From assembly GCA_050250875.1 (NCBI GenBank), contig JBFWNV010000002.1, positions 334 to 64,333 on the forward strand: 64,000 bases of DNA. The letters are read 5' to 3'. Under the pieces are notes generated by a model. That model saw nothing but the letters and a program-made list of their open reading frames with translations. It made no database searches and was not told the DNA's origin. The position numbers and the translations under genes were made by a program. The stretch comes from Vicinamibacterales bacterium (GTDB lineage: Bacteria > Acidobacteriota > Vicinamibacteria > Vicinamibacterales > UBA2999). Shown piece by piece: positions 15,498-61,020 of this stretch (positions are counted from its first letter, which is position 1; every line of letters begins with the position of its first letter).

Positions 15498-15502
15498 TTT
15501 GG

Positions 15503-17498: not shown

Positions 17499-17520
17499 GG
17501 CGTGGTGGTCTCCGGCTCCT

Positions 17521-18056: not shown

Positions 18057-18092
18057 GCGGTCCTCTCAAGGGGCCAGCGGGGGCACGGCCCG

Positions 18093-18121: not shown

Positions 18122-18149
18122 ACGCAAATTTCACAGGGTCCGGCAACGC

Positions 18150-24875: not shown

Positions 24876-24935
24876 GGGCCTGGCCCCATTGGCACGATTC
24901 TTCCGCACATTCCGTGCCATTGGGGCCAGGCCCCT
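24874..24935. terminator. Long hairpin between convergent operons (23-bp arms with 1 mismatch, 16-nt loop)
   Basis: AGGGGCCTGGCCCCATTGGCACG (24874-24896) pairs with CGTGCCATTGGGGCCAGGCCCCT (24913-24935). The left arm overlaps the stop codon at 24873-24875. Confidence 0.6.
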
Positions 24936-28193: not shown

Positions 28194-28251
28194 GGCGGCT
28201 CGTCGGAGCCGCCACGCGGACCGGGCCTCCAGGCAGAACCGAGGTTCTGCC

Positions 28252-29196: not shown

Positions 29197-29233
29197 CGGC
29201 GGCGCGCGGCCGAGCTTATCGCAGGGCCGGCCG

Positions 29234-33440: not shown

Positions 33441-33472
33441 TCCCTGGTCCCCGGTCCCTGGTCCCCGGTCCC
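33441..33472 (-). repeat. Heptad array R3 (TCCCTGG TCCCCGG x2 on plus strand; GGGACC[A/G]-type, G-rich on minus strand)
   Basis: The array fills the sufB-sufC spacer, starting directly after the sufB stop codon (33473-33475) and ending 6 nt before the sufC ATG. Confidence 0.9.
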
Positions 33473-34931: not shown

Positions 34932-34979
34932 CCCTGTTCCCCAGCCCCGTTCTTGACCGAGTCCCCAGCCCCCAGCCCC
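34932..34979 (-). repeat. G-tract array R4 in the iscA-sufB spacer (GGGGCTG-type; 7 G-tracts on minus strand)
   Basis: The minus strand reads (TAG)GGGCTGGGGGCTGGGGACTCGGTCAAGAACGGGGCTGGGGAACAGGGC, directly after the iscA-like stop codon. Confidence 0.85.
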
Positions 34980-35308
34980 TAGACCCCGAACGAAGTTCCG
35001 CACCCGCACGCGCTCTTCGCGTTGGGGTTGCGCAGCGTGAAGGTCGTGGCCATGAGGTTGCCCTCGTCGAAGTCGAGCACCGTGCCGTCGAGCAGCTTCA
35101 GGCTGCGCGGGTCGACGAACACCTTGACGCCCTCCGGCCCGTCGAACACCTGATCGGTCGGCCTGGCCTCGCGCTCCCACTGGAAAACGTAGCTGTAGCC
35201 CGAGCAGCCGCCGGCCTTGATGGCCACGCGCAGTCCACCCCGGGCCGCGCCGCTCTTCACGAGCTGCCGGTTGATGACCCGCGCCGCGCTCTCCGTGATC
35301 TCAATCAT
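34979..35308 (-). CDS. A-type Fe-S carrier (IscA/SufA/ErpA, HesB family)
   Basis: Motifs GGCSGYSY and C-terminal CGCGTSFGV. ATGA overlap with the upstream gene. Confidence 0.85.
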   Translation of the reverse strand: MIEITESAARVINRQLVKSGAARGGLRVAIKAGGCSGYSYVFQWEREARPTDQVFDGPEGVKVFVDPRSLKLLDGTVLDFDEGNLMATTFTLRNPNAKSACGCGTSFGV

Positions 35309-35742
35309 CCCGCCACCCCGCGTCCCGCCCGAGCCCCGAGCCCCGAGTCCCGAGCCCCGGCCTTGCGTTCCCAGTCCCCGATCGCCTGCTGCACCGCCGC
35401 CACGGCCTGCACCGCCATCGCCCGCTTCTCGTCCGGCAGCTCCAGCCCGTTGGCGATGGCCGCAGCGTCGAGGCCACGGGCCGCGTCCACGGCCAGGCCG
35501 GCCACCTGCTCGGCCGCCAGGCTGGCGCTGGCGATCGCCGCGCTGCAGCCGAACACCTTGAAGCGGGCGTCGTCGACGACGACACCGGTCACGCGCACCT
35601 GCATGCGCACCACGGTGCCGGCGTCGAGGCTGCCCACGACGCCGGTGCCGACCTGCGGGTCGTGCTCCGCCCAGCCGCCGGCACGGGTCATCTCGCGGCA
35701 GCGGCGGATCACCTCGGCCGAGTAGCCGGTGGCGACGCTCAT
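35305..35742 (-). CDS. NifU/IscU N-domain-like protein (degenerate: only one of three canonical cluster Cys retained)
   Basis: FKVFGCSAAIASAS matches the central IscU motif. The positions of the first (GAPACGD) and third (HCS) Cys motifs read GSLDAGT and RAMAV. Coupled by ATGA overlaps on both sides. Confidence 0.65.
   Translation of the reverse strand: MSVATGYSAEVIRRCREMTRAGGWAEHDPQVGTGVVGSLDAGTVVRMQVRVTGVVVDDARFKVFGCSAAIASASLAAEQVAGLAVDAARGLDAAAIANGLELPDEKRAMAVQAVAAVQQAIGDWERKAGARDSGLGARAGRGVAG
35327..35360 (-). repeat. Heptad array R5 (GCCCGAG CCCCGAG CCCCGAG TCCCGAG CCCCGG on plus strand), lying inside the 3' coding end of the NifU-like gene
   Basis: The array is translated as ..[12 protein letters not shown].. 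in the 35305..35742 ORF. Confidence 0.9.
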
Positions 35743-37407: not shown

Positions 37408-37499
37408 GGGTGGTCGTCCTGACGCTGGGACGCCGGGGATTGGGGCCCCCGGCGACGCCGTCCAGCGGGATCGCCAGAAATGGCGACCTCACGAGTCCT

Positions 37500-37528
37500 A
37501 TATTAGCCAGCGAAGTCCGACTGCGCAA
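37500..37528 (-). promoter_or_regulatory. Candidate promoter of the iscR-suf operon (-35 TTGCGC, 17-nt spacer, -10 TAATAT)
   Basis: The minus strand reads TTGCGC-N17-TAATAT. It is followed by ATAGGACTCGTGAGGTC, a possible Rrf2 operator, about 90 nt upstream of the ATG. Confidence 0.35.
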
Positions 37529-37551
37529 GTCGGGGATTGGGTGGACGGTTC

Positions 37552-37569
37552 AGGGACCGGGGACCAGGG
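37552..37569 (+). repeat. Heptad array R6 (AGGGACC GGGGACC AGGG, G-rich on plus strand)
   Basis: Left arm of composite element A, complementary to R7. Confidence 0.8.
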
Positions 37570-37664
37570 AAAGCGCTTGGCACGGCGCGTTCCGCGCCGT
37601 AGGCGCCTCAAAGCCCGCACGAGCAGGAACCCAGGCCGCGGCGACGCGGCCGACAGGCGTTCTG

Positions 37665-37693
37665 CCCGGTCCCGGGTCCCTGGTCCCTGGGTC
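37665..37693 (-). repeat. Heptad array R7 (CCCGGT CCCGGGT CCCTGGT CCCTGGGTC on plus strand; G-rich on minus strand)
   Basis: On the minus strand the array begins 10 nt after the cysO::moeZ stop codon (37704-37706). Confidence 0.85.
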
Positions 37694-37703: not shown

Positions 37704-39152
37704 TCAGTACTTCGGCTGGCTCGGGTCTACCTGGTCAATCCAGGCCAGGATGCCGCCGGTGAGGTTCCGCACGTTGGTGAAGCCCTGCTGGCGCAGGAAC
37801 GCCGCCGCCTTGCCGGAGCGGACGCCCGACTTGCACTGGGCGACGATCTCGGCGCTCTTGTCGAGCTCGGCACAGCGACTCGGCAAGTCGCCCAGCGGAA
37901 TCAGCACCGACCCCGGGATGCGGTTGATCTGGTACTCGTTCGGCTCGCGCACGTCGAGGATGAACGGCGTCGTCCCGGCGTCCATGCGCGCCTTCAGCTC
38001 CAGCGGCGAGACGTCGGTGGCCGGCGAGGTCGGCGGCGGCGTGGCCGGCGCCGGCGTGATGCCGCAGAACTGCTCGTAGTCGATGAGCGCCGTCACCGTC
38101 GGGTGCGTCCCGCACACCGGGCAGTCGGGATCCTTGCGCAGCGTCAGCTCGCGGAAGCGCATCCGCATCGCGTCGTAGATGAGGAACCGTCCGGCCAGCG
38201 TCTGGCCGATGCCGAGAATCAACTTCACCGTCTCGGTCGCCTGGATCGTGCCGACCAGGCCCGGCAGGATGCCGAGCACGCCGGCCTCGGCGCAGCTCGG
38301 CACGAGCCCGGGCGGCGGCGGCTCCGGGTACAGGCAGCGGTAGCACGGGCCGTCCTTGGTGCCGAACACCGAGGCCTGGCCTTCGAACCGGAAGATGCTG
38401 CCGTAGGCGTTCGGGATGCCGAGGAGCACGCACGCGTCGTTGACGAGATAGCGCGTCGGGAAGTTGTCGGTGCCGTCGACGATCACGTCATAGCCGCGGA
38501 AGATGTCGAGCGCGTTCTGCGAGCTGAGCGCCACCTCGTGGCCGACGACGTTGACGTGCGGGTTAATGCGCCGCAGCGTGTCCCGAGCCGACGCCAGCTT
38601 CGGCCGGCCGATGTCGTCGGTGCCGTGCATGATCTGACGCTGCAGGTTGCTGAGATCGACGGTGTCGAAGTCGACGATGCCCAGCGTGCCGACGCCCGCC
38701 GCCGCTAGGTACATCGCCACCGGCGAGCCGAGGCCGCCGGCGCCGATGCACAGCACCTTGGCGGCCTTGAGCTTCTGCTGCCCCTCCATGCCCACTTCCG
38801 ACAGGATGAGGTGGCGGCTGTAGCGCTTGATCTCCTCGCCGTCGAGGGCCGGGAGCGCGGCCGGGGCCTCGACACCGGCGCCACCGGCCACCGACGGGAT
38901 GATGCTCACCGTCTGGCCATCGGCCACCGGCGTCTGCTCCTTCTGCAGGTAGCGGATGTCCTCGTCGCCGACGTAGATGTTCACGAAGCTCCGCAGCTTG
39001 CCGTCGGGCGTGAAGAGGTGCTGCTTGAGGCCGGCGTGCTTCGTCGTCAGGTCCTGGAGCACCTCGCCGACCGTGGCGCCATTGGCCTGCACGGTGTCGA
39101 GCTTGTCGGTGAAGGGCCGAAGGGGCGTCGGGATGTGGATGGCTACGGGCAT
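37704..39152 (-). CDS. moeZ: Fusion protein: CysO/ThiS/MoaD-type sulfur carrier (ending ..SVAGG) + MoeZ/MoeB-type adenylyltransferase + rhodanese domain
   Basis: The first 91 aa (MPVAIHIPTPLRPF..FVNIYVGDEDIRY..SIIPSVAGG) resemble CysO. A 14-aa linker follows. The E1-like domain has RYSRHLIL, GAGGLGS and CxxC pairs. The rhodanese domain has CKSGVRS. Confidence 0.85.
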   Translation of the reverse strand: MPVAIHIPTPLRPFTDKLDTVQANGATVGEVLQDLTTKHAGLKQHLFTPDGKLRSFVNIYVGDEDIRYLQKEQTPVADGQTVSIIPSVAGGAGVEAPAALPALDGEEIKRYSRHLILSEVGMEGQQKLKAAKVLCIGAGGLGSPVAMYLAAAGVGTLGIVDFDTVDLSNLQRQIMHGTDDIGRPKLASARDTLRRINPHVNVVGHEVALSSQNALDIFRGYDVIVDGTDNFPTRYLVNDACVLLGIPNAYGSIFRFEGQASVFGTKDGPCYRCLYPEPPPPGLVPSCAEAGVLGILPGLVGTIQATETVKLILGIGQTLAGRFLIYDAMRMRFRELTLRKDPDCPVCGTHPTVTALIDYEQFCGITPAPATPPPTSPATDVSPLELKARMDAGTTPFILDVREPNEYQINRIPGSVLIPLGDLPSRCAELDKSAEIVAQCKSGVRSGKAAAFLRQQGFTNVRNLTGGILAWIDQVDPSQPKY

Positions 39153-39176
39153 ACGTCCTCGTTGGAAACCTCAAGT

Positions 39177-39608
39177 CTACGACGCCGCGGCCGCCTCCGC
39201 CGTGTCGACCGCCTGTTCGTCGTAGCCCGACCGGTCGGCCTTCAGCCGCCACGCGCGCAGTGCCCCCGGCTGGCCCTGCTGCACCGACAGGATCGGGTAG
39301 ACGAAGGTCGGGAAGGCGTGATCGAGATCGTACTGCGACGGCTCGGCCGGGTGATCGGGGTGGGAGTGGTAGAAGCCGAGCAGACTCAGCCCCGCCGCCG
39401 ACGCCTTGCGCTCGGCCGCCAGGTAGTCCTTGTCGTCCACCCGGAAGCGGCGGCGCGGCCCCTCGGTGGTCACGTTGGGCAGCGGGTGCACGGCGTGCAC
39501 GACGTCGCCCTCACCCAGCAGCGCGCCGCAGCATTCGTGCGGATAGGCCTCGCGGCCGTGCTGCTCGATGGCGGCGCGGACGCCAGGCCTGAGCGTGAGC
39601 GGCATCAT
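39177..39608 (-). CDS. mec: JAMM/MPN+ metalloprotease (Mec-type)
   Basis: Contains E..ECCG and the JAMM motif HSHPDHPAEPSQYD. ATGA overlap with cysM. Confidence 0.85.
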   Translation of the reverse strand: MMPLTLRPGVRAAIEQHGREAYPHECCGALLGEGDVVHAVHPLPNVTTEGPRRRFRVDDKDYLAAERKASAAGLSLLGFYHSHPDHPAEPSQYDLDHAFPTFVYPILSVQQGQPGALRAWRLKADRSGYDEQAVDTAEAAAAS

Positions 39609-40567
39609 GTCGTCGGCGTCTCCGACAGCGGCGCCGCGTCCACGGCGGGCTTCCGTCCCTCGTCCCAGAAGTGCTCGGACAGGTAGCGATCGCCGGCATC
39701 GCACAGCACGACCACCATCACGACGCGGTCCCGGCTGCGCAGTGCGTCGGCCGCCCGGGCCAGCCCGGCGGCGACGTTGGCGCCGCTCGAAACGCCGACG
39801 AGCAACCCCTCTTCGCGGGCCAGCCGGCGGGTCATCTCGTGCGCGGCCTCGGTCGAGATCTCCGCAGCGTAGTCGGCCAGCGTCTCGTCGTAGATGCCGG
39901 GGACGATCGCCGAGGCCATGTGCTTGAGCCCTTCGAGCCCGTGCAGCGGCGACTCCGGCTGCACCGAGACCAGCACGACGTCGGGGATGTGGGCGCGCAG
40001 GAAGCGGCCCGTGCCCATGAACGTGCCGCTGGTGCCGAGCGCGGCGATGAAATGGGTGAGGCGGCCGGCCGTGCCGGAGAGGATCTCCGGCCCGGTGGTC
40101 TCGTAGTGCGCCCGCCAGTTGAAGTCGTTGTTGTACTGATCCGGATAGAAATACCGCTCCGGGGCCGCGGCATACCGGCGCCGGCACTCGACGATCGCGC
40201 CGTCCGATCCGTCCATCGGATCGGTGAACACGAGGTCGGCACCATAGGCGGTGAGGATGCGCTTCCGCTCCGGACTCGCGCTCGCCGGCACGCACAGCGT
40301 CACCGGGAAGCCCAGGGCGGCGCCGATCATCGCGTAGGCGATGCCGGTGTTGCCGGAGGTGGCGTCGAGCAGCCGCTTGCCGGGGCCGAGCGCTCCCGAG
40401 CGGATGCCCTCGAGAATCATGTGGCGGGCGGCGCGGTCCTTCACCGACCCGCCCGGGTTGCTCGCCTCGAGCTTGCCGTACAACTCGAGGCCCGGCACGT
40501 CGCGTTCGAGCCGCGACAGGCGGACCAGTGGCGTATTGCCGATGGCGTCCAGCAGCGTTCTGTCCAT
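39605..40567 (-). CDS. cysM: Cysteine synthase (CysM-like, PLP-dependent)
   Basis: Motifs NPGGSVKDR, SGNTG and GTSGTFMG. ATG 40567; the ORF track uses TTG 40573. Confidence 0.9.
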   Translation of the reverse strand: MDRTLLDAIGNTPLVRLSRLERDVPGLELYGKLEASNPGGSVKDRAARHMILEGIRSGALGPGKRLLDATSGNTGIAYAMIGAALGFPVTLCVPASASPERKRILTAYGADLVFTDPMDGSDGAIVECRRRYAAAPERYFYPDQYNNDFNWRAHYETTGPEILSGTAGRLTHFIAALGTSGTFMGTGRFLRAHIPDVVLVSVQPESPLHGLEGLKHMASAIVPGIYDETLADYAAEISTEAAHEMTRRLAREEGLLVGVSSGANVAAGLARAADALRSRDRVVMVVVLCDAGDRYLSEHFWDEGRKPAVDAAPLSETPTT

Positions 40568-40690
40568 GGACAAGTTTCCAGCTTATGGCACAACGCGGGC
40601 CGTGGCACGACGCACCTGTGACGAACCGCCGGGTCGAGCGACATATTCGCTGGATCGAATGCGCCGCCGGCATCGTGGCATGATCCCGGC

Positions 40691-41302
40691 GTGCCTCTCG
40701 ACACCTGGCGCGCGCGCCGGCATCTAATGGCGGCCGACCCGTTGCTGGCCGACCTGATCCGGCGGGCCGGTCCGTGCCGGCTGGGCACCTCCCGACACGA
40801 GGACCCGTTCTTTCTCCTGCTGCGGGCGATCGTGTCGCAGCAGCTCTCGACCAAGGCAGCGGCGACGATCTTCGGACGCCTGTGTGCGCTGTTCCCCGCC
40901 GATCGCCCGTCGCCGTCGCGGCTGCTGGCCCTCGACGACGCCACCCCCCGCGGCGTCGGTCTCAGCACCAACAAGACGCGGTTCGTCCGCGACCTCGCCG
41001 CGCGCGTCCGCGATCGGCGCCTCGACCTCAACGCCCTCGAGCACCAGGACGACGCCACCGCCCTGAATGCGCTGACCGCGGTGCTCGGCATCGGTACGTG
41101 GACCGCCGAGATCTTCCTGATGTTCCAGCTGCATCGGCCCGATATCTTTCCGGCCGCCGACCTCGGTCTGCTGACGGCGATGCAGCGCGTCTACGGGCTG
41201 CGCACGCGGCCGACCGCGAAGCGGGCCCTGCGGCTGGCCGAACCCTGGCGCCCGCACCGGTCGGTGGCCGCGTGGTACCTGTGGCGGAGCCTGGAGATCT
41301 AG
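40691..41302 (+). CDS. DNA-3-methyladenine glycosylase II family (HhH-GPD, AlkA-like)
   Basis: Contains SQQLSTKAA, GIGTWTAEIFLMF and an Asp-containing loop FPAADLGL. Confidence 0.8.
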   Translation: MPLDTWRARRHLMAADPLLADLIRRAGPCRLGTSRHEDPFFLLLRAIVSQQLSTKAAATIFGRLCALFPADRPSPSRLLALDDATPRGVGLSTNKTRFVRDLAARVRDRRLDLNALEHQDDATALNALTAVLGIGTWTAEIFLMFQLHRPDIFPAADLGLLTAMQRVYGLRTRPTAKRALRLAEPWRPHRSVAAWYLWRSLEI

Positions 41303-41305
41303 TGC

Positions 41306-41337
41306 AGGGACCAGGGATCAGGGACCGGGGACCAGGG
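41306..41337 (+). repeat. Heptad array R8 (AGGGACC AGGGATC AGGGACC GGGGACC AGGG; G-rich on plus strand)
   Basis: The array starts 3 nt after the AlkA-like stop codon (41300-41302). Confidence 0.9.
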
Positions 41338-41448
41338 AAAGGCGTCGGCGCTGATCGCGCCGACCTCAAGTTGTTCAGACCTACAGGGGCTCCCGACACG
41401 GAGGAATCGCCCACCAGCCGTAGGCGTAAGTTCCGTCGGAGGAAGTTT

Positions 41449-41500
41449 CCTGATCCCTGATCCCTGGTCCCTGGTCCCTGGTCCCTGGTCCCTGGTCCCT
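41449..41500 (-). repeat. Heptad array R9 (2 x TGATCCC + 5 x TGGTCCC on plus strand; G-rich on minus strand)
   Basis: The array abuts the SIMPL gene stop codon (41500-41502) and is complementary to R8. Confidence 0.9.
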
Positions 41501-42206
41501 TACTTGATCGTCACCGTCAGCGTCACCGTGGCCCGAATCACCGCCTCGCCGGCGGCGATCGGCGGCGGCGGCGCAGCGGCGATGCTGTCGGCCGCCATCC
41601 GCATCATCGGCTGTTCGATCGGCCGGCTGACGACGCCGTCCTCTTCGATGCGTACGACGGCGACGACCGTGGCGCCGGCCCCGTCAGCGGCCGCCGCCGC
41701 GCGGGCGCGCGCATCGGCGACCGCCCGGGTGATCGCCTGGCGCTCGAGCTGCGTGCGATCCTTCACGTCGAACCGCACGCCCTGCACGGCGGTGCCGCCG
41801 GCGGTGACGGCGATCTCGAGCAGTTCGCCGACCCGCCCCACCTGGTCGGCCCGCACCTCGATCACGTTGCGGGCCAGAAATCCCCTCGGCACCTGCTTGC
41901 CGTTGACGTAGTCGAACTGCGGCTGCAGGTCGTAGCTGAGCGTGCGGATGGCGTCCTTGGCCAGCCCGGCGCCGGTCAGGCGCTGCTGGACGGCGGTCAT
42001 CGCCGTCGCACCCTGCGTCTGGGCATCCTTGGCGGTGCTGCCGCGGTGCTCGGTGGCCAGCGTGATGAAGGCGACGTCGGGCTGGGCACGCACCTCGCCC
42101 TCGCCGCGCACGACGACGACCGGCGGTGGCGGTCCGGCCGGGGGCTGCGCCGCCACCGGGGTGATGCCCACGCCGATCGCGAACAGCGAGCACAGGGCAC
42201 GTCGGG

Positions 42207-42210
<4 letters not shown>
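41500..42210 (-). CDS. SIMPL-domain (DUF541) periplasmic protein
   Basis: The signal peptide MTRRALCSLFAIGVGITPVAA is followed by a SIMPL-like pattern (VRGEGEV.A.PD.A, Y.V). ATGA overlap with the upstream gene. Confidence 0.7.
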
Positions 42211-43052
<842 letters not shown>

Positions 43053-43233
43053 TCAGGCCGTGGTGACTGTGGCGCCGGCACTCGACCGGCGATGCATCCC
43101 GCCTCGCATCGTTGCTCCTCCCTCGAATATTTCTCGATATCCTCGGTCGTCGCGTCTTGCGATCCGGGCGCCTCTCCGCCCTCGGTGCTGCGCCACCACA
43201 GCCACCAAGGCCTGATCAGTATACTCGGCGCCT

Positions 43234-44376
43234 ATGCGGGTCGAGCCCTTCGCGATGGAGCGCTTTCAGTCGGTCTGGGAGCACCGGGTACGCATCAACC
43301 TGTCGGAGAGCGGCGTCCATCCCCTCAGCGTGCGCGAGCTGGTCGGCGACGGCGCGGCCCTCGACGCGCTGCTCGATCAGCCGCTCGTCTACACCCAGAC
43401 CAACGGCACCGAGGCGCTCCGCTCGGCCATCGCCGCGCTCTATCCCGGCGCTGGCGTGGACCACGTCGAGGTGACCAACGGCGGAGCCGAGGCCAACTTC
43501 CTCGTCACCTGGTACCTCGTGCAGCCGGGCGACGAGGTGGTGATGCTCGTGCCCACCTACATGCAGACGCACGGGCTGGTCCGCGCCTTCGGCGGCGTCG
43601 TCCGCGAGTGGCCGCTGGTCGAGGACCGCGACGAGCGGCGGTGGCGGCTCGATCTGGACCATCTGGCCGCCCTGGTCGGCCCGCGCACGCGGGCGATCGT
43701 GCTGTGCACGCCCAACAACCCGACCGGCCGGCGGCTCACCGGCGACGAACTCGATGCCATCGCCGCGATCGCCGATCGCCACGGCTGCTGGATCGTGAGC
43801 GACGAGATCTACCGCGGCGCCGAACGCGACGGCGTCGAGTCGCCGTCGATGTGGGGGCGCGGTGAACGCGTCGTCGTCACGAGCGGTCTGTCCAAGGCCT
43901 ACGGCCTGCCCGGCCTGCGCATCGGCTGGGTGGCAACCGCGCCGGACGTGGCCGAGACCCTGTGGAGCTATCACGACTACACCACGATCGCGCCGGGCGC
44001 CCTGAGCGATCGCCTGGCGCGGACGGCGCTGGCGCCACCGACCCGGGCCCGACTGCTGGCGCGCACGCGCCAGGTGATCACCGACAACCTGCCGCGGGTC
44101 GAAGCCTGGCTCGATGCGCACGGCGATCGCTTCGCCTGGATCCCGCCCGAGGCCGGCGCCTTCGTCTACGCCCGCTACGCCGGCGCCATCAACTCGACCG
44201 CGCTGGTCACGCGCCTGCGCGACGAGGAGAGCGTCCTGGTCGTCCCCGGCGATCAGTTCGGCATGGACGGCTACCTGCGGATCGGCGTCGGTGAACACGT
44301 CGCATCGGTGATGGCCGGTCTGGAGCGGCTGCGCGCGGTGCTCGACTGCTGGCCACAGCCCGCGGCTGCACGCTGA
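43234..44376 (+). CDS. PLP-dependent aminotransferase, class I/II
   Basis: Motifs NPTGRRL, SDEIY and SGLSKAYGLPGLRIGW (PLP lysine). Confidence 0.85.
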   Translation: MRVEPFAMERFQSVWEHRVRINLSESGVHPLSVRELVGDGAALDALLDQPLVYTQTNGTEALRSAIAALYPGAGVDHVEVTNGGAEANFLVTWYLVQPGDEVVMLVPTYMQTHGLVRAFGGVVREWPLVEDRDERRWRLDLDHLAALVGPRTRAIVLCTPNNPTGRRLTGDELDAIAAIADRHGCWIVSDEIYRGAERDGVESPSMWGRGERVVVTSGLSKAYGLPGLRIGWVATAPDVAETLWSYHDYTTIAPGALSDRLARTALAPPTRARLLARTRQVITDNLPRVEAWLDAHGDRFAWIPPEAGAFVYARYAGAINSTALVTRLRDEESVLVVPGDQFGMDGYLRIGVGEHVASVMAGLERLRAVLDCWPQPAAAR

Positions 44377-45419
44377 TGCCGGCGCGGCCGTCGCTGCGGC
44401 TCGTGCTCGTCGGCACCGGCCATGTCGGGCGCCGGCTGCTGACGCTGCTCGCCCAGATCGGCGACCGGCTGCCGTTCGACTGGTCGCTGGTCGGGGTGTG
44501 CTCCCGATCGCGCGGCGGCCGGTTCGACGCCGACGGGATCGATCCGGGCCAGCTCGATGGGCCGCTCGATCCGCCGGAGCGCTGGAACGGCGACGGCAGC
44601 GGCTTTCTCTCGGCCGCCCTGCCGCGGCTGGCCGCCGAGTGCCGCGCCGGCCGCGTGGTGGTCGTCGAAACCACCGTGCTGGACGCCGCCCGCGGGGAAC
44701 CGGCGACGAGCCACGTGCGAACGGCGCTGGGCGCCGGCGCCCACGTCGTCACCGCCAACAAGGGACCGGCGGCATTCGCGTATCACGACCTGGCGGCCCG
44801 CGCCGCCGCCGCCGATCGCGCGTTCCTCTTCGAGAGCGCGGTCATGGACGGCGTGCCGGTGTTCTCGCTGGTCGCCGACGCGATGCCGGCGATGCGTGTC
44901 ACGGCGTTCCGCGGCGTCGTCAACACGACCTGCGGCTACGTCCTGGCCGCGCTCGAGCGCGGCGAACGCTTCGCCGACGCGCTCGCCGAGATGCAGCGCC
45001 AGGGCATCGCCGAGGCCGATCCGTCACTGGACGTCGACGGCTGGGATGCCGCGGCGAAGGCGGCCGTGCTGGCCAATGCGCTGCTCGACGCCCGGATCAC
45101 GCCCCACGACGTCGTCCGTCAGGGCATCCGCGGCCTCGACGTCGAGGCCCTGGCCCGGCACAGGACCCAGGGGGTGCGGCTGCGCCTGGTGGCCGAGGGA
45201 CGGCGCACGGCGGACGCCGTGACGTGCCGCGTGGCGCCGGCGTGGCTCGAGGCGGCGGATCCCCTGGCCCAGGTGTCGGGGCTCGAGAACGCGCTCTATC
45301 TGTCCACCGACCTTCTCGGCGAGATCGGCATCGTGCAGCGCGACGGCGGCCTCACCCAGACGGCGTACGGCCTGGTCGCCGATCTGGCGCGGGTCAGCCG
45401 TCGGGTGACCGCCCGGTGA
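44376..45419 (+). CDS. Homoserine dehydrogenase family oxidoreductase
   Basis: The N-terminal Rossmann motif is VLVGTGHVGRRL. Also ANKGP, ESAVMDGVPV and AEADPSLDVDGWDAA. Confidence 0.7.
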   Translation: MPARPSLRLVLVGTGHVGRRLLTLLAQIGDRLPFDWSLVGVCSRSRGGRFDADGIDPGQLDGPLDPPERWNGDGSGFLSAALPRLAAECRAGRVVVVETTVLDAARGEPATSHVRTALGAGAHVVTANKGPAAFAYHDLAARAAAADRAFLFESAVMDGVPVFSLVADAMPAMRVTAFRGVVNTTCGYVLAALERGERFADALAEMQRQGIAEADPSLDVDGWDAAAKAAVLANALLDARITPHDVVRQGIRGLDVEALARHRTQGVRLRLVAEGRRTADAVTCRVAPAWLEAADPLAQVSGLENALYLSTDLLGEIGIVQRDGGLTQTAYGLVADLARVSRRVTAR

Positions 45420-45642
45420 GCGCGGCCAGCGCCGCCGCGTCGAAGCCGACGACGGCGCGGTCGCCCGCGACGGTCACCGGCACGGTGCGATGACCCCGCG
45501 CCACGAGCTCGTCGTAGGCGGCGAGGTCCTCGTCGACGTTGCGCAGCACGAACGCCACCCCGGCCCGTGAAAGCCACGCCTTCACCCGTTCGCAGGGCTG
45601 TCAGCCTTCGCCGGCGAAGACGATGACGGGCGCCTCGGTCAT
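45394..45642 (-). CDS. Glutaredoxin/NrdH-fold protein with in-frame TGA in the redox motif (candidate selenoprotein, U-Q-P-C), 82 codons
   Basis: ORF fragments 45601..45834 (C-terminal MTEAPVIVFAGEG) and 45394..45585 are in the same frame. The joined read is VIVFAGEG-TGA-QPCERVKAWL...RTVPVTV..VVGFD. A hairpin lies at 45567-45585, 15 nt after the TGA. Confidence 0.5.
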
Positions 45643-45703
45643 GCATCCGACATTACCAGAGCGCCGGCCGGCGCGACGCGGGGTACCATGTGCGGGACAC
45701 GAC

Positions 45704-46897
45704 ATGGGACCACTGACCGGCATCACCGTTCTCGACTTCACGCGCGTGCTCTCCGGGCCGTACTGCACGATGATCCTCGGCGACCTCGGCGCGCGCGTCA
45801 TCAAGCTCGAACATCCCGGCCGCGGTGACGACACCCGGCGCTGGGGCCCGCCGTTTCTCGGTGACGAGAGCGCCTACTTCCTGAGCGTCAACCGCAACAA
45901 GGAGAGCGTGGCGGTCGACTTCAAGACGCCGGGCGGCCGCGCCCTCGTGGATCGGTTGCTGGCCCAGGCCGACGTGCTGGTCGAGAACTTCCGTCCCGGC
46001 ACGCTCGACGGCGCCGGGTTCGATGCGGCCACTGTGCGGGCGGCGCATCCGCGGTTGATCTACTGCTCCATCTCCGGCTACGGCCAGACCGGGCCCCGCC
46101 GCGACGAACCCGGCTACGACGCGGTGATGCAGGCCGAGGGCGGGCTGATGAGCATCACCGGAGCGGCCGACGGGCCGCCGTATCGCCTCGGCGTCGCCAT
46201 CGTGGACATCGTCTCGGGCATGTTCGCCGCGCAGGGCGTGCTCGCGGCGCTCGTCGCCCGCGAGCGCACCGGGCAGGGCCAGGTGGTCGATCTCGGCATG
46301 CTCGACGCCACCACCGCGCTGCTCACCTATCAGGCCGGCAACTTCTTCGCGACCGGCGCGGCGCCGGGCCGGCTCGGCAACCGTCATCCGACCATCGCGC
46401 CCTACGAGACCTTCGCCACCGCCGACGGCGACCTGGCCCTGGCCGTCGGCAACGACGCGCTGTGGCAGAAGTTCTGCGCGGCCGCGGAGCTGCCCGACCT
46501 GGCCGCCGATCCGCGATTCGCGTCGAACGCCGGACGGCTCGAGCACTACCCGGCGCTCAAGCCGCGGCTCGACGCGGCGTTCGCCTCACGGACGCGCGCC
46601 GACTGGACGGCGCGGCTGCTGGCCGCGGGCGTGCCGTGCGGGGCGGTGCGGACGGTGGAGGAGGTCTTCGCCGATCCGCAGACGGCGGCGCGCGAGATGG
46701 TGCGGAAGGTGCCGCACGCGACGCTGGGCGAGGTCTCGGTCACCGGCGTGCCGGTCAAGCTGTCGGACACCCCCGGCAGCGTGCGCCTCGGTCCGCCGGT
46801 GCTGGGGCAACATACCGCGGCGGTGCTGCGCGAGCTCGGCTACGATCAGGCGGCCATCGCATCACTGGCGTCGTCGGGCGCCGTCCGGGTGGCGTGA
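45704..46897 (+). CDS. CoA transferase, family III (CaiB/BaiF)
   Basis: Motifs ITVLDFTRVLSGPYCTMILGDLGARVIKLE, ENFRPG and GYD..MQA.GG. Confidence 0.85.
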   Translation: MGPLTGITVLDFTRVLSGPYCTMILGDLGARVIKLEHPGRGDDTRRWGPPFLGDESAYFLSVNRNKESVAVDFKTPGGRALVDRLLAQADVLVENFRPGTLDGAGFDAATVRAAHPRLIYCSISGYGQTGPRRDEPGYDAVMQAEGGLMSITGAADGPPYRLGVAIVDIVSGMFAAQGVLAALVARERTGQGQVVDLGMLDATTALLTYQAGNFFATGAAPGRLGNRHPTIAPYETFATADGDLALAVGNDALWQKFCAAAELPDLAADPRFASNAGRLEHYPALKPRLDAAFASRTRADWTARLLAAGVPCGAVRTVEEVFADPQTAAREMVRKVPHATLGEVSVTGVPVKLSDTPGSVRLGPPVLGQHTAAVLRELGYDQAAIASLASSGAVRVA

Positions 46898-46898
46898 G

Positions 46899-47327
46899 AT
46901 GGACATCGCCCTGCTCCGCAAGTCGCTGGTCAAGGCCATCGAGAGCGCCCGGCGCGACGCCGCCGAGCGGCGCACGCGCGCCGACGAGGCCGGCCGCCAC
47001 TACACGCAGTTCCTCGAGCAGACGGCGACGCCGGTGTTCCGGGCGATGGCCAACGCCCTGCGCGGCGAGGGTCTGCTCTTCGACGTGATGACGCCGTCGG
47101 GCGGCGTCCGCCTGGTGCCCGAGCGGTCGCGGGAGGACGGCATCGAGCTGGTGCTCGACACCAGCGTGGATCCGCCGCAGCCGCTGGTGCGCGTGGTGCG
47201 CTCGCGCGGCAGCCGGGTGACGCAGCACGAGCGGCCGGTGGCCGGCCCGGTCCGCACCGACGCGCTCACCGAGGATCACGTGGCGGCGATGCTGCTCGAA
47301 GAGCTGCGGCCGTGGTTGGAGAGATAG
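46899..47327 (+). CDS. Hypothetical protein
   Basis: 142-aa ORF starting 1 nt after the upstream stop codon. No family was recognised. Confidence 0.5.
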   Translation: MDIALLRKSLVKAIESARRDAAERRTRADEAGRHYTQFLEQTATPVFRAMANALRGEGLLFDVMTPSGGVRLVPERSREDGIELVLDTSVDPPQPLVRVVRSRGSRVTQHERPVAGPVRTDALTEDHVAAMLLEELRPWLER

Positions 47328-47390
47328 GCTCGGGGCTCGGGGCTCGGGGCTCGGGGCTCGGGGCTCGGGGCTCGGGGCTCGGGGCTCGGG
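47327..47390 (+). repeat. Heptad array R10 (about 9 x GGGGCTC, G-rich on plus strand)
   Basis: A perfect tandem array beginning at the last base of the stop codon 47325-47327. Confidence 0.95.
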
Positions 47391-47457
47391 AAGAACCTAA
47401 ACGGAACCATCACCCATTCTTCCGGCAGCGTGACGTCTCGACAACTTGAGTGTTCGA

Positions 47458-47484
47458 ACCCGAGCCCCGAAACCCGAGCCCCGG
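47458..47484 (-). repeat. Heptad array R11 (ACCCGAG CCCCGAA ACCCGAG CCCCGG on plus strand; G-rich on minus strand)
   Basis: On the minus strand the array begins 19 nt after the PilT-like stop codon (47504-47506). It is complementary to R10. Confidence 0.85.
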
Positions 47485-47486
47485 CT

Positions 47487-47525
47487 GTTCGTCGAGCGGC
47501 GAGCTACGCGAGCCGCTCGACGAAC
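47487..47525 (-). terminator. Perfect 14-bp hairpin with the PilT-like gene's stop codon in its loop
   Basis: GTTCGTCGAGCGGC (47487-47500) pairs with GCCGCTCGACGAAC (47512-47525). The 11-nt loop contains the stop codon. Confidence 0.5.
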
Positions 47526-50167
47526 GACGTGTCGATGCCCTCGCGGCGCAGCAGGCCGAGCAGGCCCACCTTGTCGTCGGCCTTGCGGTAGGCCTCGCGG
47601 ACGTCGACCGCGCCGCTCTGCACGAACGCCACCAGGGCGTCGTTGAGCGGCGCCATGCCCAGCTTGCGGCCGCTGTCGATGGCGCGCGGCAGCTGGGCGA
47701 TCTGGCCGTCGCTGACCAGCGCGGCCACGGCGTTGGTGTTGAGCACCAGCTCCCGGGCGGCGAGCCGGCCGCCGCCGGCCTTGCGCAGCAGCACCTGGGC
47801 GACGACGCCGCGCAGGTGTTCGGCGAGGGCGGCCCGCACCGTGCGCCGCTGTTCCGACGGGCACAGATCGACGAGGCGCTCGAGCGCGGCGGTGGCCGAC
47901 GCCGCGGTCACCGACGCGAACACCAGCAGGCCCGAGCCGGCGGCGTCGAGCGCCACCTGCAGCACGTCGGGCGAGCGCAGGTCTTCGATGATCAGGACGT
48001 CGGGGTTCTCGCGCAGCGCGGCGCGGGCGGCGGTGACCACCTCGGCGGCGCTGCCGCGCAGCTCGCGCTGGCTGATGAGCGAGCCGCGGCTCTCGTGCAC
48101 CAGGCGAATCTGCCCTTCGAGCGTGATGACGTAGTCGTTGCGCTGGCGGTTGATGAGGTCGACGAAGGCCGAGACCATCGTCGACTTGCCGCTGGCGCGC
48201 GGGCCGGTGACGATCACCAGGCCTTCCGGTTCCATCGCCAGCGCCTGGATCTCGCGCACCAGGCCGAGCTGCTCGGCCGAGGTCGCGCGCGCCGAGATCA
48301 TCCGCAGCAGCGCGCCGGGGCCGCGGTAGTCGCGGAAGGTGGTGATGCGGACGCGGCCGATGTCCTGCAGATCGCGGATCCACTCGGCGCTTTCCTTGTC
48401 GCGGGCACCTTCCGGCGCCAGCTCCAGCACCGCCGCTTCGACATCGCCGCTCGACAGCGGCGACTCCCCTTCGAGCAGGCGGATGTCGCCGTCGACGCGC
48501 ACGGCCGGCCGCGCCTGCGTCGTGAGGTAGAGCGCCGAAGCGCCGCGCGCCGCGGCCAACCGCAGCAGGCGCTCGATGCCGCCGGCGCGGCCGTGCGCGC
48601 GCGAGGCCTGGCTGGCGGCGCGGGCCGAATCGCGGGTCAGCGAGAGGACCACGCCGGGGACGGCATCCGCCGGCGTCTCGCTGCGCGTGACGTCGTCGAA
48701 CGCCGTCGGCGGCAGGCCGGGCAGGGTCGGCTGCGGCTCGATCGGTGGGAACGGGGGCTCGGGCACGGCGGGTTCGACGCGCGGCATCGGCGCGCGGGGG
48801 GAGGCCGCGGCGGCCGGCACGTCGTAGCGGGGAGCGTAGGGTTCGACCGGCGGCGCCGCTGGCGCGATCGGCGGCTCGGGGGAGACCGGCACGGGCGTCA
48901 TTGTCGCCGAGGCGGGCGCCGCCGTGGGCGGAATCGCGGCCGCGGCCGCCGGGGCCGTGAACTCGGGCACGGCCGGCACCGGCTGGGCCGGCTCGGGCGG
49001 CGCGGCCGCCACGACGGGCACGGGCGGCGCCGCGGCCACCGGTTCGAACTCGGGTTCGGCCGCGCCGGCGGGTTCGGCCTCGACCGCTGGCGTGGCTGCG
49101 GGTTCGGCCGCTGGCCCCGGAGATGCGGCCGCGGCGGACTCGACCGCGGCGGCGGGCGGTTCGGCGAACGGCATCGACACGGGTTCGACCGGCGGGACGG
49201 CGGCCTCCACGACCGCGTCGAACGACACCGGCGCCGCCGCGGCCGGCAGGTCGATGGTGAACTCGAGCGCCGGCGCCACGGCCGGCTCGTCGATCGGCGA
49301 CTCGAAATCGATCGCCGGTACGTGGTCGATGGTCCACGTCTCGGGCGCGATCGACTCGGCGATCTCGACCGGTTCGAAGGTGTCCTCCGCCGTCGCCGGT
49401 GCGGGCTCGACCTCGGCGGCCGGCTCGGCCACGACCAGCGGTGGTTCGAACGGCACCGGCTCCGGCCCGGCAGGCATCGGCTCGACGGCGGGCGTGCGCT
49501 CCTCGAGGGCGGCGGGTTCAACCTGCGGCGCTGCGGACTCCACGGCTGCGGGCTCGATGACCGCAGCCTCGACCTCGACCGACACGGTTTCGTCCTCGAC
49601 GGCGGGTGGGGTCATGGGCGACGCGACCTCTGCCGGTTCGGCGGCGACCTCGGCGGGCAGGTCGTGGGATGGGATCGCCCCCGCCGGCTCGGCGGACGCC
49701 GCGACCTCGGGCGCCGCCGTCTCGGCTGGCGCAGCGAGCGGCTCGGGCGGCGCGGCGGCCGTCTCCGGCTCGTGATCGGCGGTCGCGATCGGCGCCTCGA
49801 CGGCGGCAGCCGGCGCCGCCACCGGCACCGACGGACGGGGGCGGCGGTGGCGGCGCACTTCGATCCAGATGTCGTCGCCGCCGCGCGCGGCGATGACGGT
49901 GAAGCGATCGCCGCCGGCCGCGGGAATCGTCGCCAGCTCGTGCTCGACGGCGCCCATCTCGCGCAGGCCGCGCAGCGCGTCGGCGGTCAGCAGCTGCGCG
50001 AGCAGGCCCTCCATCGCGCCGAGACCGAGCCCCTGACGCGACAGCTCGACCGGGCCGGCGGCCGCCACGACGTAAGGCTTCTCCCCTACGTGCAGCACCA
50101 GCGCATCGCCGTCACTGCGGACGATGGCGGTCAGGAGCGAGTCGACGAGCGGCATCGGTGATGACAT
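47504..50167 (-). CDS. PilT/GspE-family ATPase-like protein with duplicated PilT N-domain and a Pro/Ala/Glu/Val-rich linker of about 450 aa
   Basis: The C-terminal ATPase domain has Walker A GPRASGKST and DVLIIEDLR. The His-box position reads FASVTAASATAALERL, with no His. The N-terminal 110 aa and residues around 560-650 both look like PilT N-domains. Confidence 0.7.
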   Translation of the reverse strand: MSSPMPLVDSLLTAIVRSDGDALVLHVGEKPYVVAAAGPVELSRQGLGLGAMEGLLAQLLTADALRGLREMGAVEHELATIPAAGGDRFTVIAARGGDDIWIEVRRHRRPRPSVPVAAPAAAVEAPIATADHEPETAAAPPEPLAAPAETAAPEVAASAEPAGAIPSHDLPAEVAAEPAEVASPMTPPAVEDETVSVEVEAAVIEPAAVESAAPQVEPAALEERTPAVEPMPAGPEPVPFEPPLVVAEPAAEVEPAPATAEDTFEPVEIAESIAPETWTIDHVPAIDFESPIDEPAVAPALEFTIDLPAAAAPVSFDAVVEAAVPPVEPVSMPFAEPPAAAVESAAAASPGPAAEPAATPAVEAEPAGAAEPEFEPVAAAPPVPVVAAAPPEPAQPVPAVPEFTAPAAAAAIPPTAAPASATMTPVPVSPEPPIAPAAPPVEPYAPRYDVPAAAASPRAPMPRVEPAVPEPPFPPIEPQPTLPGLPPTAFDDVTRSETPADAVPGVVLSLTRDSARAASQASRAHGRAGGIERLLRLAAARGASALYLTTQARPAVRVDGDIRLLEGESPLSSGDVEAAVLELAPEGARDKESAEWIRDLQDIGRVRITTFRDYRGPGALLRMISARATSAEQLGLVREIQALAMEPEGLVIVTGPRASGKSTMVSAFVDLINRQRNDYVITLEGQIRLVHESRGSLISQRELRGSAAEVVTAARAALRENPDVLIIEDLRSPDVLQVALDAAGSGLLVFASVTAASATAALERLVDLCPSEQRRTVRAALAEHLRGVVAQVLLRKAGGGRLAARELVLNTNAVAALVSDGQIAQLPRAIDSGRKLGMAPLNDALVAFVQSGAVDVREAYRKADDKVGLLGLLRREGIDTSFVERLA

Positions 50168-50272
50168 GCGGCCGGGTTTCCCGGGGGTGCACTCCCCCAC
50201 ACGGGAAGCCCGGACCCAACCGTCCTGTGTTGGTGTTTCGGACCCTCAGGACCTCAACGATAGCGACGGATC

Positions 50273-60102: not shown

Positions 60103-61020
60103 TTACCGCTCGAACCGGATGGTGCCGTCGCCGGTGCGCACCCGCAACGTGCCGCCGCCGGCGCCCAGCGTCGCCCGCAGCTCGCGCCGCGACTCGTCGT
60201 CGCCGTCGTCGCGCCGCACCACTTCGAGGCCCGGGTAGTTCGATCGCACGCTGCCGTCCGAGGTCACGGCGTCGACCATCACGTCGATTTTCTCGGGCAG
60301 CCGCACCTCGACGCTGCCATCGCGCGTTTCCACGGTCCAGTCGTCGGTGGCCGTGCTGCCAGCCTCGACGGCGATCCGCACCGAGCCGTCGCCGGTCTTG
60401 GCGCGCAGGTGCGTGAAGGTGCCGTTGACGACGACACTGCCGTCGCCGGTTTCGACGTCGACCTTGCCGCTGATCTCACGGAAGCGGATGCTGCCGTCGT
60501 CGGTGCGCGCCGTCACCTCGCCGGTGATCCGCGAGGCGACGATGGCGCCGTCGTCGGTGCGCAGCGTCTGCACGCCGTCGACTTCCTCGACGGTGATCGA
60601 GCCGTCGCCGCTGCGCAGGTCGAGGGCGGTCGTCTTGGGTACGGCGACGCGCAGCCGCGCGCTCGGCGAGTAGCTGACGCCGATCACCACGCCTTCGCTC
60701 CCCGACCAGGTCGGGCCCTTCACGCGGAGGCGGATCTGGTCGCCCTCCTGCGACTTCTCGACGGTGATCTCCTGCAGCCGCGCGTCGTCCTGCGCCTGCT
60801 TCTCGACCACCACCTCCACTTCGGGCCGGTCCCAGGCGTGCACCTCGATGGCGCCGTCGAAGGTGTCGAGCGCGACCGTCGCGGTGCCGGTCACCGTGAA
60901 GCGATGCGTTTCCGACGCCGTGGCGCCGTCGGTGTTGACGTTGACCGTGCACGCAGTGAGCGCGACGGCGAGTGTGCCGGCGCCGACGGCGCCGATGAGA
61001 TCTCCTGGTCGTGCCATCAC
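60103..61020 (-). CDS. DUF4097-family beta-strand-repeat lipoprotein
   Basis: Lipobox ..LAVALTAC. Repeated units (T/S)(D/G)DGSI/V (SGDGSITV, TDDGSIRF, TGDGSVVV, TGDGSVRI, TRDGSVEV, TSDGSVRS, TGDGTIRF). ATG 61017 is an alternative start. Confidence 0.75.
   Translation of the reverse strand: MMARPGDLIGAVGAGTLAVALTACTVNVNTDGATASETHRFTVTGTATVALDTFDGAIEVHAWDRPEVEVVVEKQAQDDARLQEITVEKSQEGDQIRLRVKGPTWSGSEGVVIGVSYSPSARLRVAVPKTTALDLRSGDGSITVEEVDGVQTLRTDDGAIVASRITGEVTARTDDGSIRFREISGKVDVETGDGSVVVNGTFTHLRAKTGDGSVRIAVEAGSTATDDWTVETRDGSVEVRLPEKIDVMVDAVTSDGSVRSNYPGLEVVRRDDGDDESRRELRATLGAGGGTLRVRTGDGTIRFER

Follow-up and report, generated by a model that had tools for sequence, protein, structure and literature searches.

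Element C of a Vicinamibacterales bacterium, an inverted pair of heptamer arrays with a possible role at the 3' ends of convergent genes

In this work, we analyzed element C, an intergenic structure at positions 47327-47525 of a 64,000-nt stretch of DNA from a Vicinamibacterales bacterium (phylum Acidobacteriota; assembly GCA_050250875.1, contig JBFWNV010000002.1), the whole of which is called the window here. Element C lies between the 3' ends of two convergent genes and comprises two inverted arrays of G-rich heptamers, a core between them and a hairpin that spans a stop codon. We read it as one copy of a lineage-wide class of intergenic heptamer arrays that would act as a bidirectional terminator or stabiliser lacking a U-tract, a reading to which we give about even chances; its role in termination or stabilisation is one that we infer from sequence. 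Three traits are constant across the relatives compared: (i) the array starts at the stop codon, (ii) it is G-rich on the sense strand, and (iii) the two arms of a pair match. Unit type, copy number, core and core orientation change at fixed sites between strains 84-98% related, which makes this lineage a natural experiment.

The anatomy of element C agrees with the preliminary description of this DNA, which had proposed a left array of nine perfect GGGGCTC repeats, a 67-bp core, an inverted, C-rich partial right array and a perfect 14-bp hairpin with a stop codon in its loop. On the plus strand, a 142-aa open reading frame (ORF) without a Pfam family (46899-47327) ends at TAG 47325-47327, where the left array begins at once (47327-47390, plus strand); Tandem Repeats Finder (TRF) resolved it as 9.1 copies of GGCTCGG, that is GGGGCTC, with 100% matches and a score of 128. 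This arm follows the pattern of G3+ tracts, its G-rich strand being the sense strand of the 142-aa ORF. The core (47391-47457, 67 nt), the spacer or loop of the large predicted hairpin, is followed by the right arm (47458-47484, minus strand), 3.6 imperfect heptamers that read GGGGCTC GGGTTTC GGGGCTC GGG and in which TRF (47457/47459-47483) found either a period of 14 (1.9 copies, 100%) or a period of 7 (3.6 copies, 77%). The right arm is G-rich on the sense strand of the converging gene and complementary to the left arm at 92% over 25 nt. The converging gene is an 898-aa ORF on the minus strand (47504-50200) with a C-terminal ATPase domain of the T2SSE type (type II/IV secretion or pilus; Pfam PF00437, E 1e-21, residues 616-808), so that its earlier label "pilT-like" is only roughly right. 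Element C is predicted to fold on either strand, at -132 and -115 kcal/mol (z -8.0 and -6.1).

TRF and a search for G3+ tracts together located 11 G-rich heptamer arrays in the window (G+C 72%), where the generic pattern GGGRMYNGGGRMYNGGG (GGGRMYN) has 27 matches against 0.03 expected. The units are GGGGCTC-like at 13.5, 17.5, 35.3 and 47.3-47.5 kb, GGGACCR at 33.4, 37.55-37.69 and 41.3-41.5 kb, and GGGGCTG at 34.96 kb. Placed on a crude gene map, all 11 are intergenic or overlap gene ends. Ten adjoin a stop codon (at 0-21 nt) and every one of these is G-rich on the sense strand of the gene that stops there, an outcome with a probability of 2^-10 if orientation were random; in seven cases the array starts 0-5 nt from the stop codon. 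The eleventh array (37551-37570) is the distal arm of a pair and follows no stop codon. The same sense-strand rule was found in four relatives (L022, L024, L025 and L026). The density of about 1 array per 6 kb compares with about 1 per 27 kb in Xanthomonas campestris, calculated from 186 reported repeats and a chromosome of about 5 Mb.

Five of the arrays are single, all of them at closely spaced junctions between co-directional genes, and three of these five lie in the suf operon (NifU-IscA, IscA-SufB and SufB-SufC). The others form three inverted pairs, A, B and C, all able to fold into long hairpins (z -6 to -9). Element B (41303-41500) occupies, like C, a convergent junction, between an HhH-GPD gene and a SIMPL gene; its inverted GGGACCA/GGGATCA arrays (41305-41338 and 41447-41500) enclose a core of 109-117 nt and the whole is predicted to fold, again on either strand, at -136 kcal/mol (z -9.4). 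Element A (37551-37693), an inverted GGGACCR pair, is found between two minus-strand genes, after the end of a ThiF-like gene and before the conserved promoter-like (promoter/operator) region of the Rrf2-suf operon.

The turnover of these elements could be followed in a series of relatives. A contig of the metagenome-assembled genome (MAG) GCA_050182705.1 (JBFXCB010000110.1, L002) is 100% identical to window positions 38707-47794. What we call the 98% strain is represented by the Joint Genome Institute (JGI) metagenome contigs Ga0131077_10011030 and Ga0131077_10003770 (L001, L022); L001 is 98.1% identical to the window over the flanking 9.6 kb, and the strain also supplied about 9 kb of sequence past the window edge. 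The syntenic loci L005-L011 came from a protein-guided metagenome scan, and L012 and L021-L028 from look-ups of window proteins and SIMPL homologues. Identical copies of the 142-aa protein are present in the MAG and in one JGI metagenome contig, and the closest named homologues of the SIMPL protein belong to Vicinamibacterales and Acidobacteriota MAGs. In L001, element B is kept with one additional A in the core and a right arm of 5.4 copies against 7.4 in the window; repeat number, a point raised in the preliminary description, is thus polymorphic among strains. Elements A and C, on the other hand, are replaced in the 98% strain by non-homologous elements with GCGGCTA/GCGGCTG arrays and different cores. 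Of the suf arrays, that of the NifU-IscA junction is GGGACCA-type in this strain and GGGGCTC-type in the window, that of IscA-SufB is unchanged, and that of SufB-SufC is GCGGCTA-type in the 98% strain and as in the window in L026.

At the C locus, the range among relatives is wider still. L025 has a GGGACCR pair around a core homologous to that of the window, which it keeps in part; in L006 the pair mixes GGGGCTC with GGGTCCC and encloses another core; L005 has just one array, of TAGCCGC; L010 combines (GGGAACA)4.5 with GTTCCC; L008 and L024 each carry a minimal palindrome, GCGGCTAGCCGC; L007 has two palindromes, GGGGCCTGGCCCC, which belong to a different element family; and L009 and L026 have no array, with spacers of 22 nt and 7 nt. 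The L025 array beside the 142-aa gene is of the GGGACTA/GGGACCG type and yet has the same end junction, GGGAAGAACCT, as the GGGGCTC array of the window, from which it follows that the unit type changed in place. Variant units within arrays (GGGACTC, GGGACTA, GGGACCC, GGGGCTA) connect the types by single substitutions, and this pattern fits mutation followed by homogenisation driven by slippage.

Every inverted pair seen has the same unit type on both arms, even though the genomes hold two to three types. This survey covered A, B and C of the window, the replacement elements A' and C' of L001, the pair of L006, B and C of L025, A and B of L026, and the minimal pairs of L024, L008 and L010. Matched unit types imply a coupling of the arms, its cause being gene conversion or else selection for pairing. 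At the A locus, an inverted pair is kept in the window, L001 and L026 despite three unrelated cores and two heptamer types (L001 and L026 being GCGGCTA-type). This persistence of the pair is the strongest argument for selection on the architecture. In the 98% strain, just past the right end of the window, inverted GGGACCA-type arrays (L022 3931-3985 and 4796-4827) flank a whole 229-aa NAD-binding gene, each array adjoining the stop codon of a different gene.

The hairpin at the right end of element C behaves differently from the arrays. It occupies 47487-47525 on the minus strand, with arms at 47487-47500 and 47512-47525, one of which is formed by the final codons of the ATPase gene, and with an 11-nt loop that holds the stop codon of this gene (CTA 47504-47506). 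Its arms show compensating changes among the sequences compared (GAGCGGC/GCCGCTC, GAGCGCC/GGCGCTC and GAACGCC/GGCGTTC), the non-coding arm tracking synonymous or coding changes in the opposite one. The hairpin is the predicted minimum free energy (MFE) structure in the window, L005, L024 and L025, and is not so in five relatives (L007-L010 and L026); our expectation that it would be universal was thus abandoned, with the MFE structure found in only four of nine sequences. The stop-spanning hairpin is a separate component, older and evolutionarily steadier than the heptamer pair.

Taken together, these results point towards a mechanism that can be outlined as follows. Arrays would grow and turn over by replication slippage, and recombination or gene conversion between arms would homogenise them and flip the core. 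Whichever of the two convergent transcripts is considered, its G-rich first arm would pair with its C-rich second arm into a GC stem of at least 25 bp, and this stem together with the stop-spanning 14-bp hairpin would define and protect mRNA 3' ends and block antisense transcription into the opposing gene. Roles in termination and mRNA stabilisation have been proposed for repetitive extragenic palindromes (REPs) (PMC3733652), and a paired element would be analogous to REPs and to bacterial interspersed mosaic elements (BIMEs) as a bidirectional terminator or stabiliser that lacks a U-tract. Other convergent spacers of the window have plain GC hairpins directly 3' of the stop codons, which we regard as functional analogues.

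Several observations weigh against this proposal. At the C locus some relatives have no array (L009, L026), a single array (L005) or another palindrome (L007), and since relatives vary to complete absence at the same locus, element C is dispensable. Single arrays cannot form a hairpin, so the hairpin is not the reason why arrays exist. The absence of arrays in some relatives and the existence of single arrays are the strongest arguments against a required function. Only two of about nine convergent junctions in the window carry a pair. The inverted arrays around the whole NAD-binding gene fit an array belonging to each gene equally well as a pair forming one unit, and gene conversion alone, without selection for pairing, could match the types of the arms. 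Furthermore, a consensus terminator scan of 46800-47700 gave no terminator-like site, and no U-tract is present there.

Part of the case made in the preliminary description rested on the cores. It had claimed that the core of C, read in reverse, shares with element B the blocks CTCAAGTTGT, GGARGAAT and GTTCCGT in the same order, and that such a core between different heptads is a repeated module and not a product of slippage. The blocks do exist as strings, but their significance is marginal. Local alignment of the two cores gave p = 0.012 (p = 0.003 with cheap gaps), chained exact matches gave p of about 0.02, which ranks ninth of 72 comparisons, and among 56-72 comparisons other pairs of cores score equally well or better. 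BLAST of one core against the other returned no match at E <= 0.05 within 7.9 kb of intergenic sequence; the 16-mer CTCAAGTTGTNNAGAC, allowing up to 3 mismatches, occurs in the window at B and C with no third copy; and a profile built from B and C (nhmmer) had no further match in 160 kb. In 185,579 species genomes, a collection that does not hold B and C of the window themselves, the pattern CTCAAGTTGTNNAGAC-N5-30-GGARGAAT gave two chance-level matches in unrelated phyla, so that the further genomic copies that would have strengthened the claim did not appear beyond chance.

The orthologues speak more clearly. Of the three blocks, only GTTCCGT is kept in them: element B of L025 reads CTCACTTCTC at the position of CTCAAGTTGT, and the C core of L025 keeps GTCACGCTGCCG, GTTCCGT and AGGTTCTTCC and has unrelated sequence in the CTCAAGTTGT part. 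Within the core of element C, all on the minus strand, the array-proximal GTTCCGT box (47401-47407; ACGGAAC on the plus strand) is common to element B and the orthologues; the block GTCACGCTGCCG (47423-47434), the best conserved part of the C-type core, is retained at 12/12 positions in C of L025 and also occurs at the A locus of L026; and the 16-mer CTCAAGTTGTCGAGAC (47435-47450) matches element B (41365-41380) at 14/16 positions and is not kept in the L025 orthologues. The B core of L025 is 70% identical to that of the window in inverted orientation and 52% when collinear, with its hairpin GCGTCGGCGCTGATCGCGCCGACCTCA kept at 27/27 positions; because the B core is itself flipped relative to the flanking genes in L025, the "reverse orientation" of B and C carries no information. 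The 98% strain, in which C is replaced wholesale and B is retained, also counts against B and C as one module, an idea that these marginal p values, the lack of BLAST or profile support and the loss of the blocks in orthologues do not sustain. By these comparisons B and C appear to share little more than an array-proximal box. The wider claim, that cores are repeated modules independent of heptad type, is partly supported by the comparisons: BLAST and profile searches detect no homology of the B and C cores, but a C-type core is found at a non-orthologous locus of L026.

There, in the ThiF/Rrf2 spacer and between GCGGCTA arrays, the 5' part of the C-type core (AGCGGATCACGCNGTCACGCTGCC ... GGCCAGGCG) recurs with a match of 24 nt at 95.8% (E 8e-6 in 175 kb), the L026 member spanning 14491-14561. 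A weaker third member adjoins a TGGTCCC array in L022 (4752-4803) and reads GATCAC-N4-GTCACGTTG ... GGTTCCATCGGAGG. This family is thus found at three loci across relatives, with GGGGCTC, GGGACCR and GCGGCTA arrays, and with a single copy in the window. A search of 189 kb with a sequence model of the C-type core (R1) brought up as members only the four sequences on which the model was trained; B of L025 reached E 0.14 and B of the window was missed. Across about 85 kb of non-redundant sequence, the pattern GTTCCRTNNNAGG is confined to B and the L022 site, and it adjoins an array in both places. The orthologues of B and C retain a GTTCCGY box beside the C-rich array, and the box is seen again in L022; its extended form GGCGT-N2-3-GTTCCGY ... 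GTTCTKCC stands beside the C-rich arm in B and C of the window, B and C of L025 and C' of L001, and is shortened in A of the window. We discarded GCCGTAGGC, present in the A, B and L006 cores, as a motif, since it is a common Ala-Tyr-Gly codon string that occurs 7 times in the window and lies within a gene in 5 of these cases. A reading of GGGTTCGAAC as the remnant of a tRNA T-arm was likewise dropped, there being no complementary stem. Viral contigs scanned for (GGGGCTC)3 yielded eight unrelated contexts.

Other explanations of the arrays have to be weighed against the terminator or stabiliser reading. They might be neutral or selfish, slippage-prone microsatellites without function, the cores being leftover spacer, which we consider possible but rather unlikely. 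Their orientation would then result from a filter, in that Rho would be loaded onto C-rich unstructured RNA right behind a stop codon, with polarity as the result, leaving only G-rich arrays to survive, and the pairs would arise when two arrays meet or by local inverted duplication. The hypervariability up to full absence at the same locus agrees with such an origin, as do unit types joined by single-base intermediates (GGGGCTC, GGGACTC, GGGACTA, GGGACCR), which are typical of satellite concerted evolution, the occasional translation of arrays as C-terminal extensions and the lack of arrays at most convergent junctions. Moreover, heptamer simple sequence repeats (SSRs) are generally over-represented in large, high-GC genomes, and the Xanthomonas and Nostoc repeats have no assigned function despite dedicated study (PMC4692102). 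Neutrality accounts less well for the tight array starts at stop codons (0-5 nt in those seven cases), for unit types that match across the arms of every pair, for an A-locus pair that persists through three core replacements, for the dispersal of core families and for a density well above that of X. campestris (about 1 array per 6 kb against about 1 per 27 kb). A regulatory G-quadruplex (G4) in the sense-strand RNA or the non-template DNA, modulating termination, translation coupling or mRNA decay and competing with the hairpin in pairs, is in our view improbable. The GGGGCTC and GGGACCA arrays do satisfy the sequence rule G3+N1-7 x4. With 9 units in one arm of C and 3.6 in the other, about 5 G-tracts have no pairing partner beside the stem, and for related heptamers, which share this positional bias, G4 formation in vitro is documented (PMC4692102). 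However, close relatives carry GCGGCTA/GCGGCTG at the same sites, units with no GGG run that do not satisfy the rule and allow no canonical three-tetrad G4, and the long Watson-Crick stem is predicted to dominate the fold by RNAfold, which does not model G4 in this setting. That a unit unable to form G4 can take the place of G4-competent units makes a G4-specific role unlikely and argues for a role of the hairpin or of strand composition; any function that the arrays have would be independent of G4.

That B and C are copies of one mobile core, comparable to a miniature inverted-repeat transposable element (MITE), to a REP doublet forming a hairpin (REPIN) or to a small RNA gene, with the arrays as variable terminal inverted repeats, seems unlikely to us. 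The C-type core at the non-orthologous L026 locus and, more weakly, in L022, with three heptamer types in all, speaks for mobility, as does the replacement of whole elements between strains 98% identical; other REP-like hairpins of the lineage sit at different loci in different genomes, the GTTCCGY/GTTCTKCC box beside the C-rich arm is common to B-type and C-type cores, and B against reverse-complemented C does reach p = 0.003 with cheap gaps. Against it stand the failure of BLAST and profiles to detect B/C homology (with the C-type model missing window B and reaching only E 0.14 for that of L025), the loss of CTCAAGTTGT and GGARGAAT in orthologues, the lack of a second copy of either core in the window and of matches beyond chance in the species genomes. 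In addition, no target-site duplication is recognisable; no transposase or REP-associated tyrosine transposase (RAYT) was seen, though no search was aimed at them; no Rfam family applies (at gathering score, Rfam 15 found nothing in A, B or C, its only matches in the window being 2 tRNAs and a cobalamin riboswitch); and arrays also occur without any core. An inverton, in which the inverted arrays are recombination sites and the orientation of a polar core decides which neighbouring gene is affected, is very improbable. Its appeal lies in the B core, which has opposite orientations relative to the flanking genes in the window and L001 and in L025, and in the polarity of the cores, with a hairpin at one end and the GTTCCGY box at the other. 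Yet the cores of A, B and C contain no promoter-like site, consensus promoter and terminator scans returning nothing in C or B and no sigma-70-like promoter; the elements lie between gene 3' ends; the inversion was observed between lineages, never inside a population, and comes from a single assembly that is rich in frameshifts; and no invertase gene is evident among the listed neighbours. It is tempting to speculate that the element is an intergenic cassette, a low-probability idea in which a polar core of a dispersed family (with a hairpin or GATCACG-GTCACG end and a GTTCCGY/GTTCTKCC end) is held between recombining arms, flipped, passed from locus to locus and from strain to strain, and given new arms of whatever heptamer is being homogenised across the genome at the time. 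If so, a trans-acting factor specific for the heptamer or the box would be implied, together with a switchable directional effect on which neighbouring transcript is terminated or silenced.

Among described systems, the closest are the quadruplex-forming heptamer SSRs of Rehm et al. 2015 (PMC4692102), GGGAATC in Xanthomonas and GGGGA(C/T)T in Nostoc. Inverted pairs are frequent among them too, a Xanthomonas genome having 70-75 convergent pairs able to form stem-loops. Like those repeats, the arrays described here are tandem heptamers with a G3-4 tract, strongly intergenic and under-represented between divergent genes, and their length and sequence vary between close relatives with the type, "single or pair", being kept. 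That kind is defined by 2 to more than 20 head-to-tail units with at least 3 G, a non-coding position within 50 bp after a stop codon, a G-rich coding strand and inverted pairs, and all of these features were found here, with 9.1 and 3.6 units in element C; the unit consensus GGGNATC or GGGGA(C/T)T was not, the units here being GGGGCTC, GGGACCR, GGGGCTG, GCGGCTR and GGGAACA. Element C thus appears to fit this kind in all structural features tested except unit sequence and, as judged from these features, is of the same kind and not of the same sequence family. Further differences are the phylum, Acidobacteriota; the several unit types per genome that swap at the same site between strains; the GCGGCTR type, which cannot form a canonical G4; a density about five times higher; and spacers that belong to dispersed families and are invertible, such as are not reported in PMC4692102.

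As with REPs, BIMEs and REPINs (PMC3733652; PMC3116915), these are short extragenic palindromic structures 3' of genes, mostly at co-directional or convergent junctions, often present as inverted dimers that fold into larger structures and with copies at different loci in related genomes, and the proposed roles in termination and mRNA stabilisation are also held in common. Here, however, the arms are tandem arrays of variable length and unit instead of a fixed 20-40-bp palindrome, no RAYT is linked, and 47327-47525 contains no GTAG tag and only a CGTC (47436-47439) that is not at a palindrome end. Classical REP-type, GTAG-tagged GC-rich hairpins do occur in the same window, at 11939-11964, 24872-24934 and 28191-28254, the TAG of the tag being the stop codon of the upstream gene. 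The A' core of L001 (720-744) has a perfect 25-nt match to window 11940-11964 (E 2e-8), and the C-locus element of L007 (786-860) matches window 24874-24935, in both cases at non-orthologous loci. The resemblance to MITEs consists in short non-coding DNA with inverted ends and, probably, in copies of internal sequence across loci in related genomes, but SSR arrays of variable length form the ends, with different units around copies of one core, no parent transposon is known, and at C the arrays adjoin stop codons with no direct duplication visible. With intrinsic terminators, element C has in common a stable GC hairpin directly after the stop codon, predicted to be bidirectional between convergent genes; it differs from them in lacking a U-tract and in having a stem of repeats and a loop of about 70 nt. 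U-tract-poor hairpin terminators occur in high-GC bacteria. Judged by their definitions, element C appears to be neither a REP, a MITE, an intrinsic terminator nor an inverton.

Heptanucleotide repeats are also found in cyanobacteria, in the STRR (short tandemly repeated repetitive) sequences of Calothrix and Nostoc, to which PMC4692102 also refers. The TAACTGA heptamers of Beggiatoaceae, AT-rich and hardly ever inverted, precede start codons at a short distance (MacGregor 2015, PMC4679880). Both resemble the arrays studied here in the heptamer period, in hundreds of short intergenic arrays per genome near gene boundaries and in a suspected post-transcriptional role; STRR units differ in sequence, and neither has been described with dispersed cores between inverted arms. 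In the literature searched, the occurrence in Acidobacteria, the several interconverting unit types per genome and the dispersed, invertible cores appear to be new.

Heptamers are the most over-represented class of long SSRs in large, high-GC bacterial genomes, and their function and origin are obscure even in Xanthomonas and Nostoc. If a role at mRNA 3' ends is true, the arrays would represent a widespread type of terminator or insulator, missed by standard predictors, in a major and poorly studied soil phylum, and would explain the assembly breaks at gene ends in these genomes. The heptamer arrays do appear to break short-read assemblies. L001 and L022, the two contigs of the 98% strain, approach the C locus from opposite sides, and each of them stops at the heptamer element there or close to it. 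The MAG contig L002 ends in an untrimmed Illumina adapter, AGATCGGAAGAGCACACGTCTGA (9089-9111).

The five single arrays all lie on the minus strand. One of the GGGACCR type (33442-33472, 4.4 copies) fills the SufB-SufC spacer; one of the GGGGCTG type (34963-34987) overlaps the IscA stop codon at the IscA-SufB junction; a GGGGCTC/GGGACTC array (35309-35358) at the NifU-IscA junction is inside the 3' end of the NifU ORF; and two of the GGGGCTC type are placed between two co-directional genes (17521-17551) and around the stop codon of a Fe/Mn superoxide dismutase gene (13494-13525). Arrays can be translated: the superoxide dismutase ORF stops at TAG 13511-13513 inside its array, and the NifU-like ORF reads through the entire 35309-35358 array (35305-35358) as a Gly/Ala/Arg-rich C-terminal tail, which in the 98% strain is encoded by another heptamer. 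Stop codons within 5 nt of an array are TAG in 4 cases, TAA in 3 and TGA in none, compared with 37 TGA, 15 TAG and 5 TAA in the window overall, a bias that may be confounded by TGA in overlapping ATGA/GTGA junctions. At the C locus, the stop codon is TAG in 5/5 relatives with the left array and TGA in 3/3 without it.

Some further features of these sequences were recorded. The region upstream of Rrf2 (37489-37545, minus strand; GACTTGCGCAGTCGGACTT ... CTAATATAGGACTCG) is kept in L001, L024 and L026 in spite of the replacement of the neighbouring heptamer elements; from its conservation it is probably the promoter/operator of the Rrf2-suf operon, and it scored below the threshold of the promoter scan. 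The heptamer-bearing spacers also receive gene insertions in relatives. L024 has two such genes, one for an M14 peptidase in the SIMPL/HhH-GPD spacer and one for an amidohydrolase in the ThiF/Rrf2 spacer (10004-12955; 16711-18372), and L025, whose split genes suggest frameshift errors, has an insertion of about 3 kb with small ORFs in a heptamer-bearing spacer (14511-17568). The cobalamin riboswitch of the window (18203-18364, plus strand) lies upstream of a TonB-dependent receptor/ABC transporter cluster, and the tRNA genes are at 158-245 (minus strand) and 7992-8065 (plus strand). An identical 15-mer, CCGAGCTTATCGCAG, is present in two unrelated spacers, at 3632-3646 and 29210-29224 (E 3e-4 within intergenic DNA), both times just upstream of a minus-strand start codon. 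The top TRF score of the window belongs to a 54-nt tandem repeat at 60437-60562, with 2.3 copies matching at 78%.

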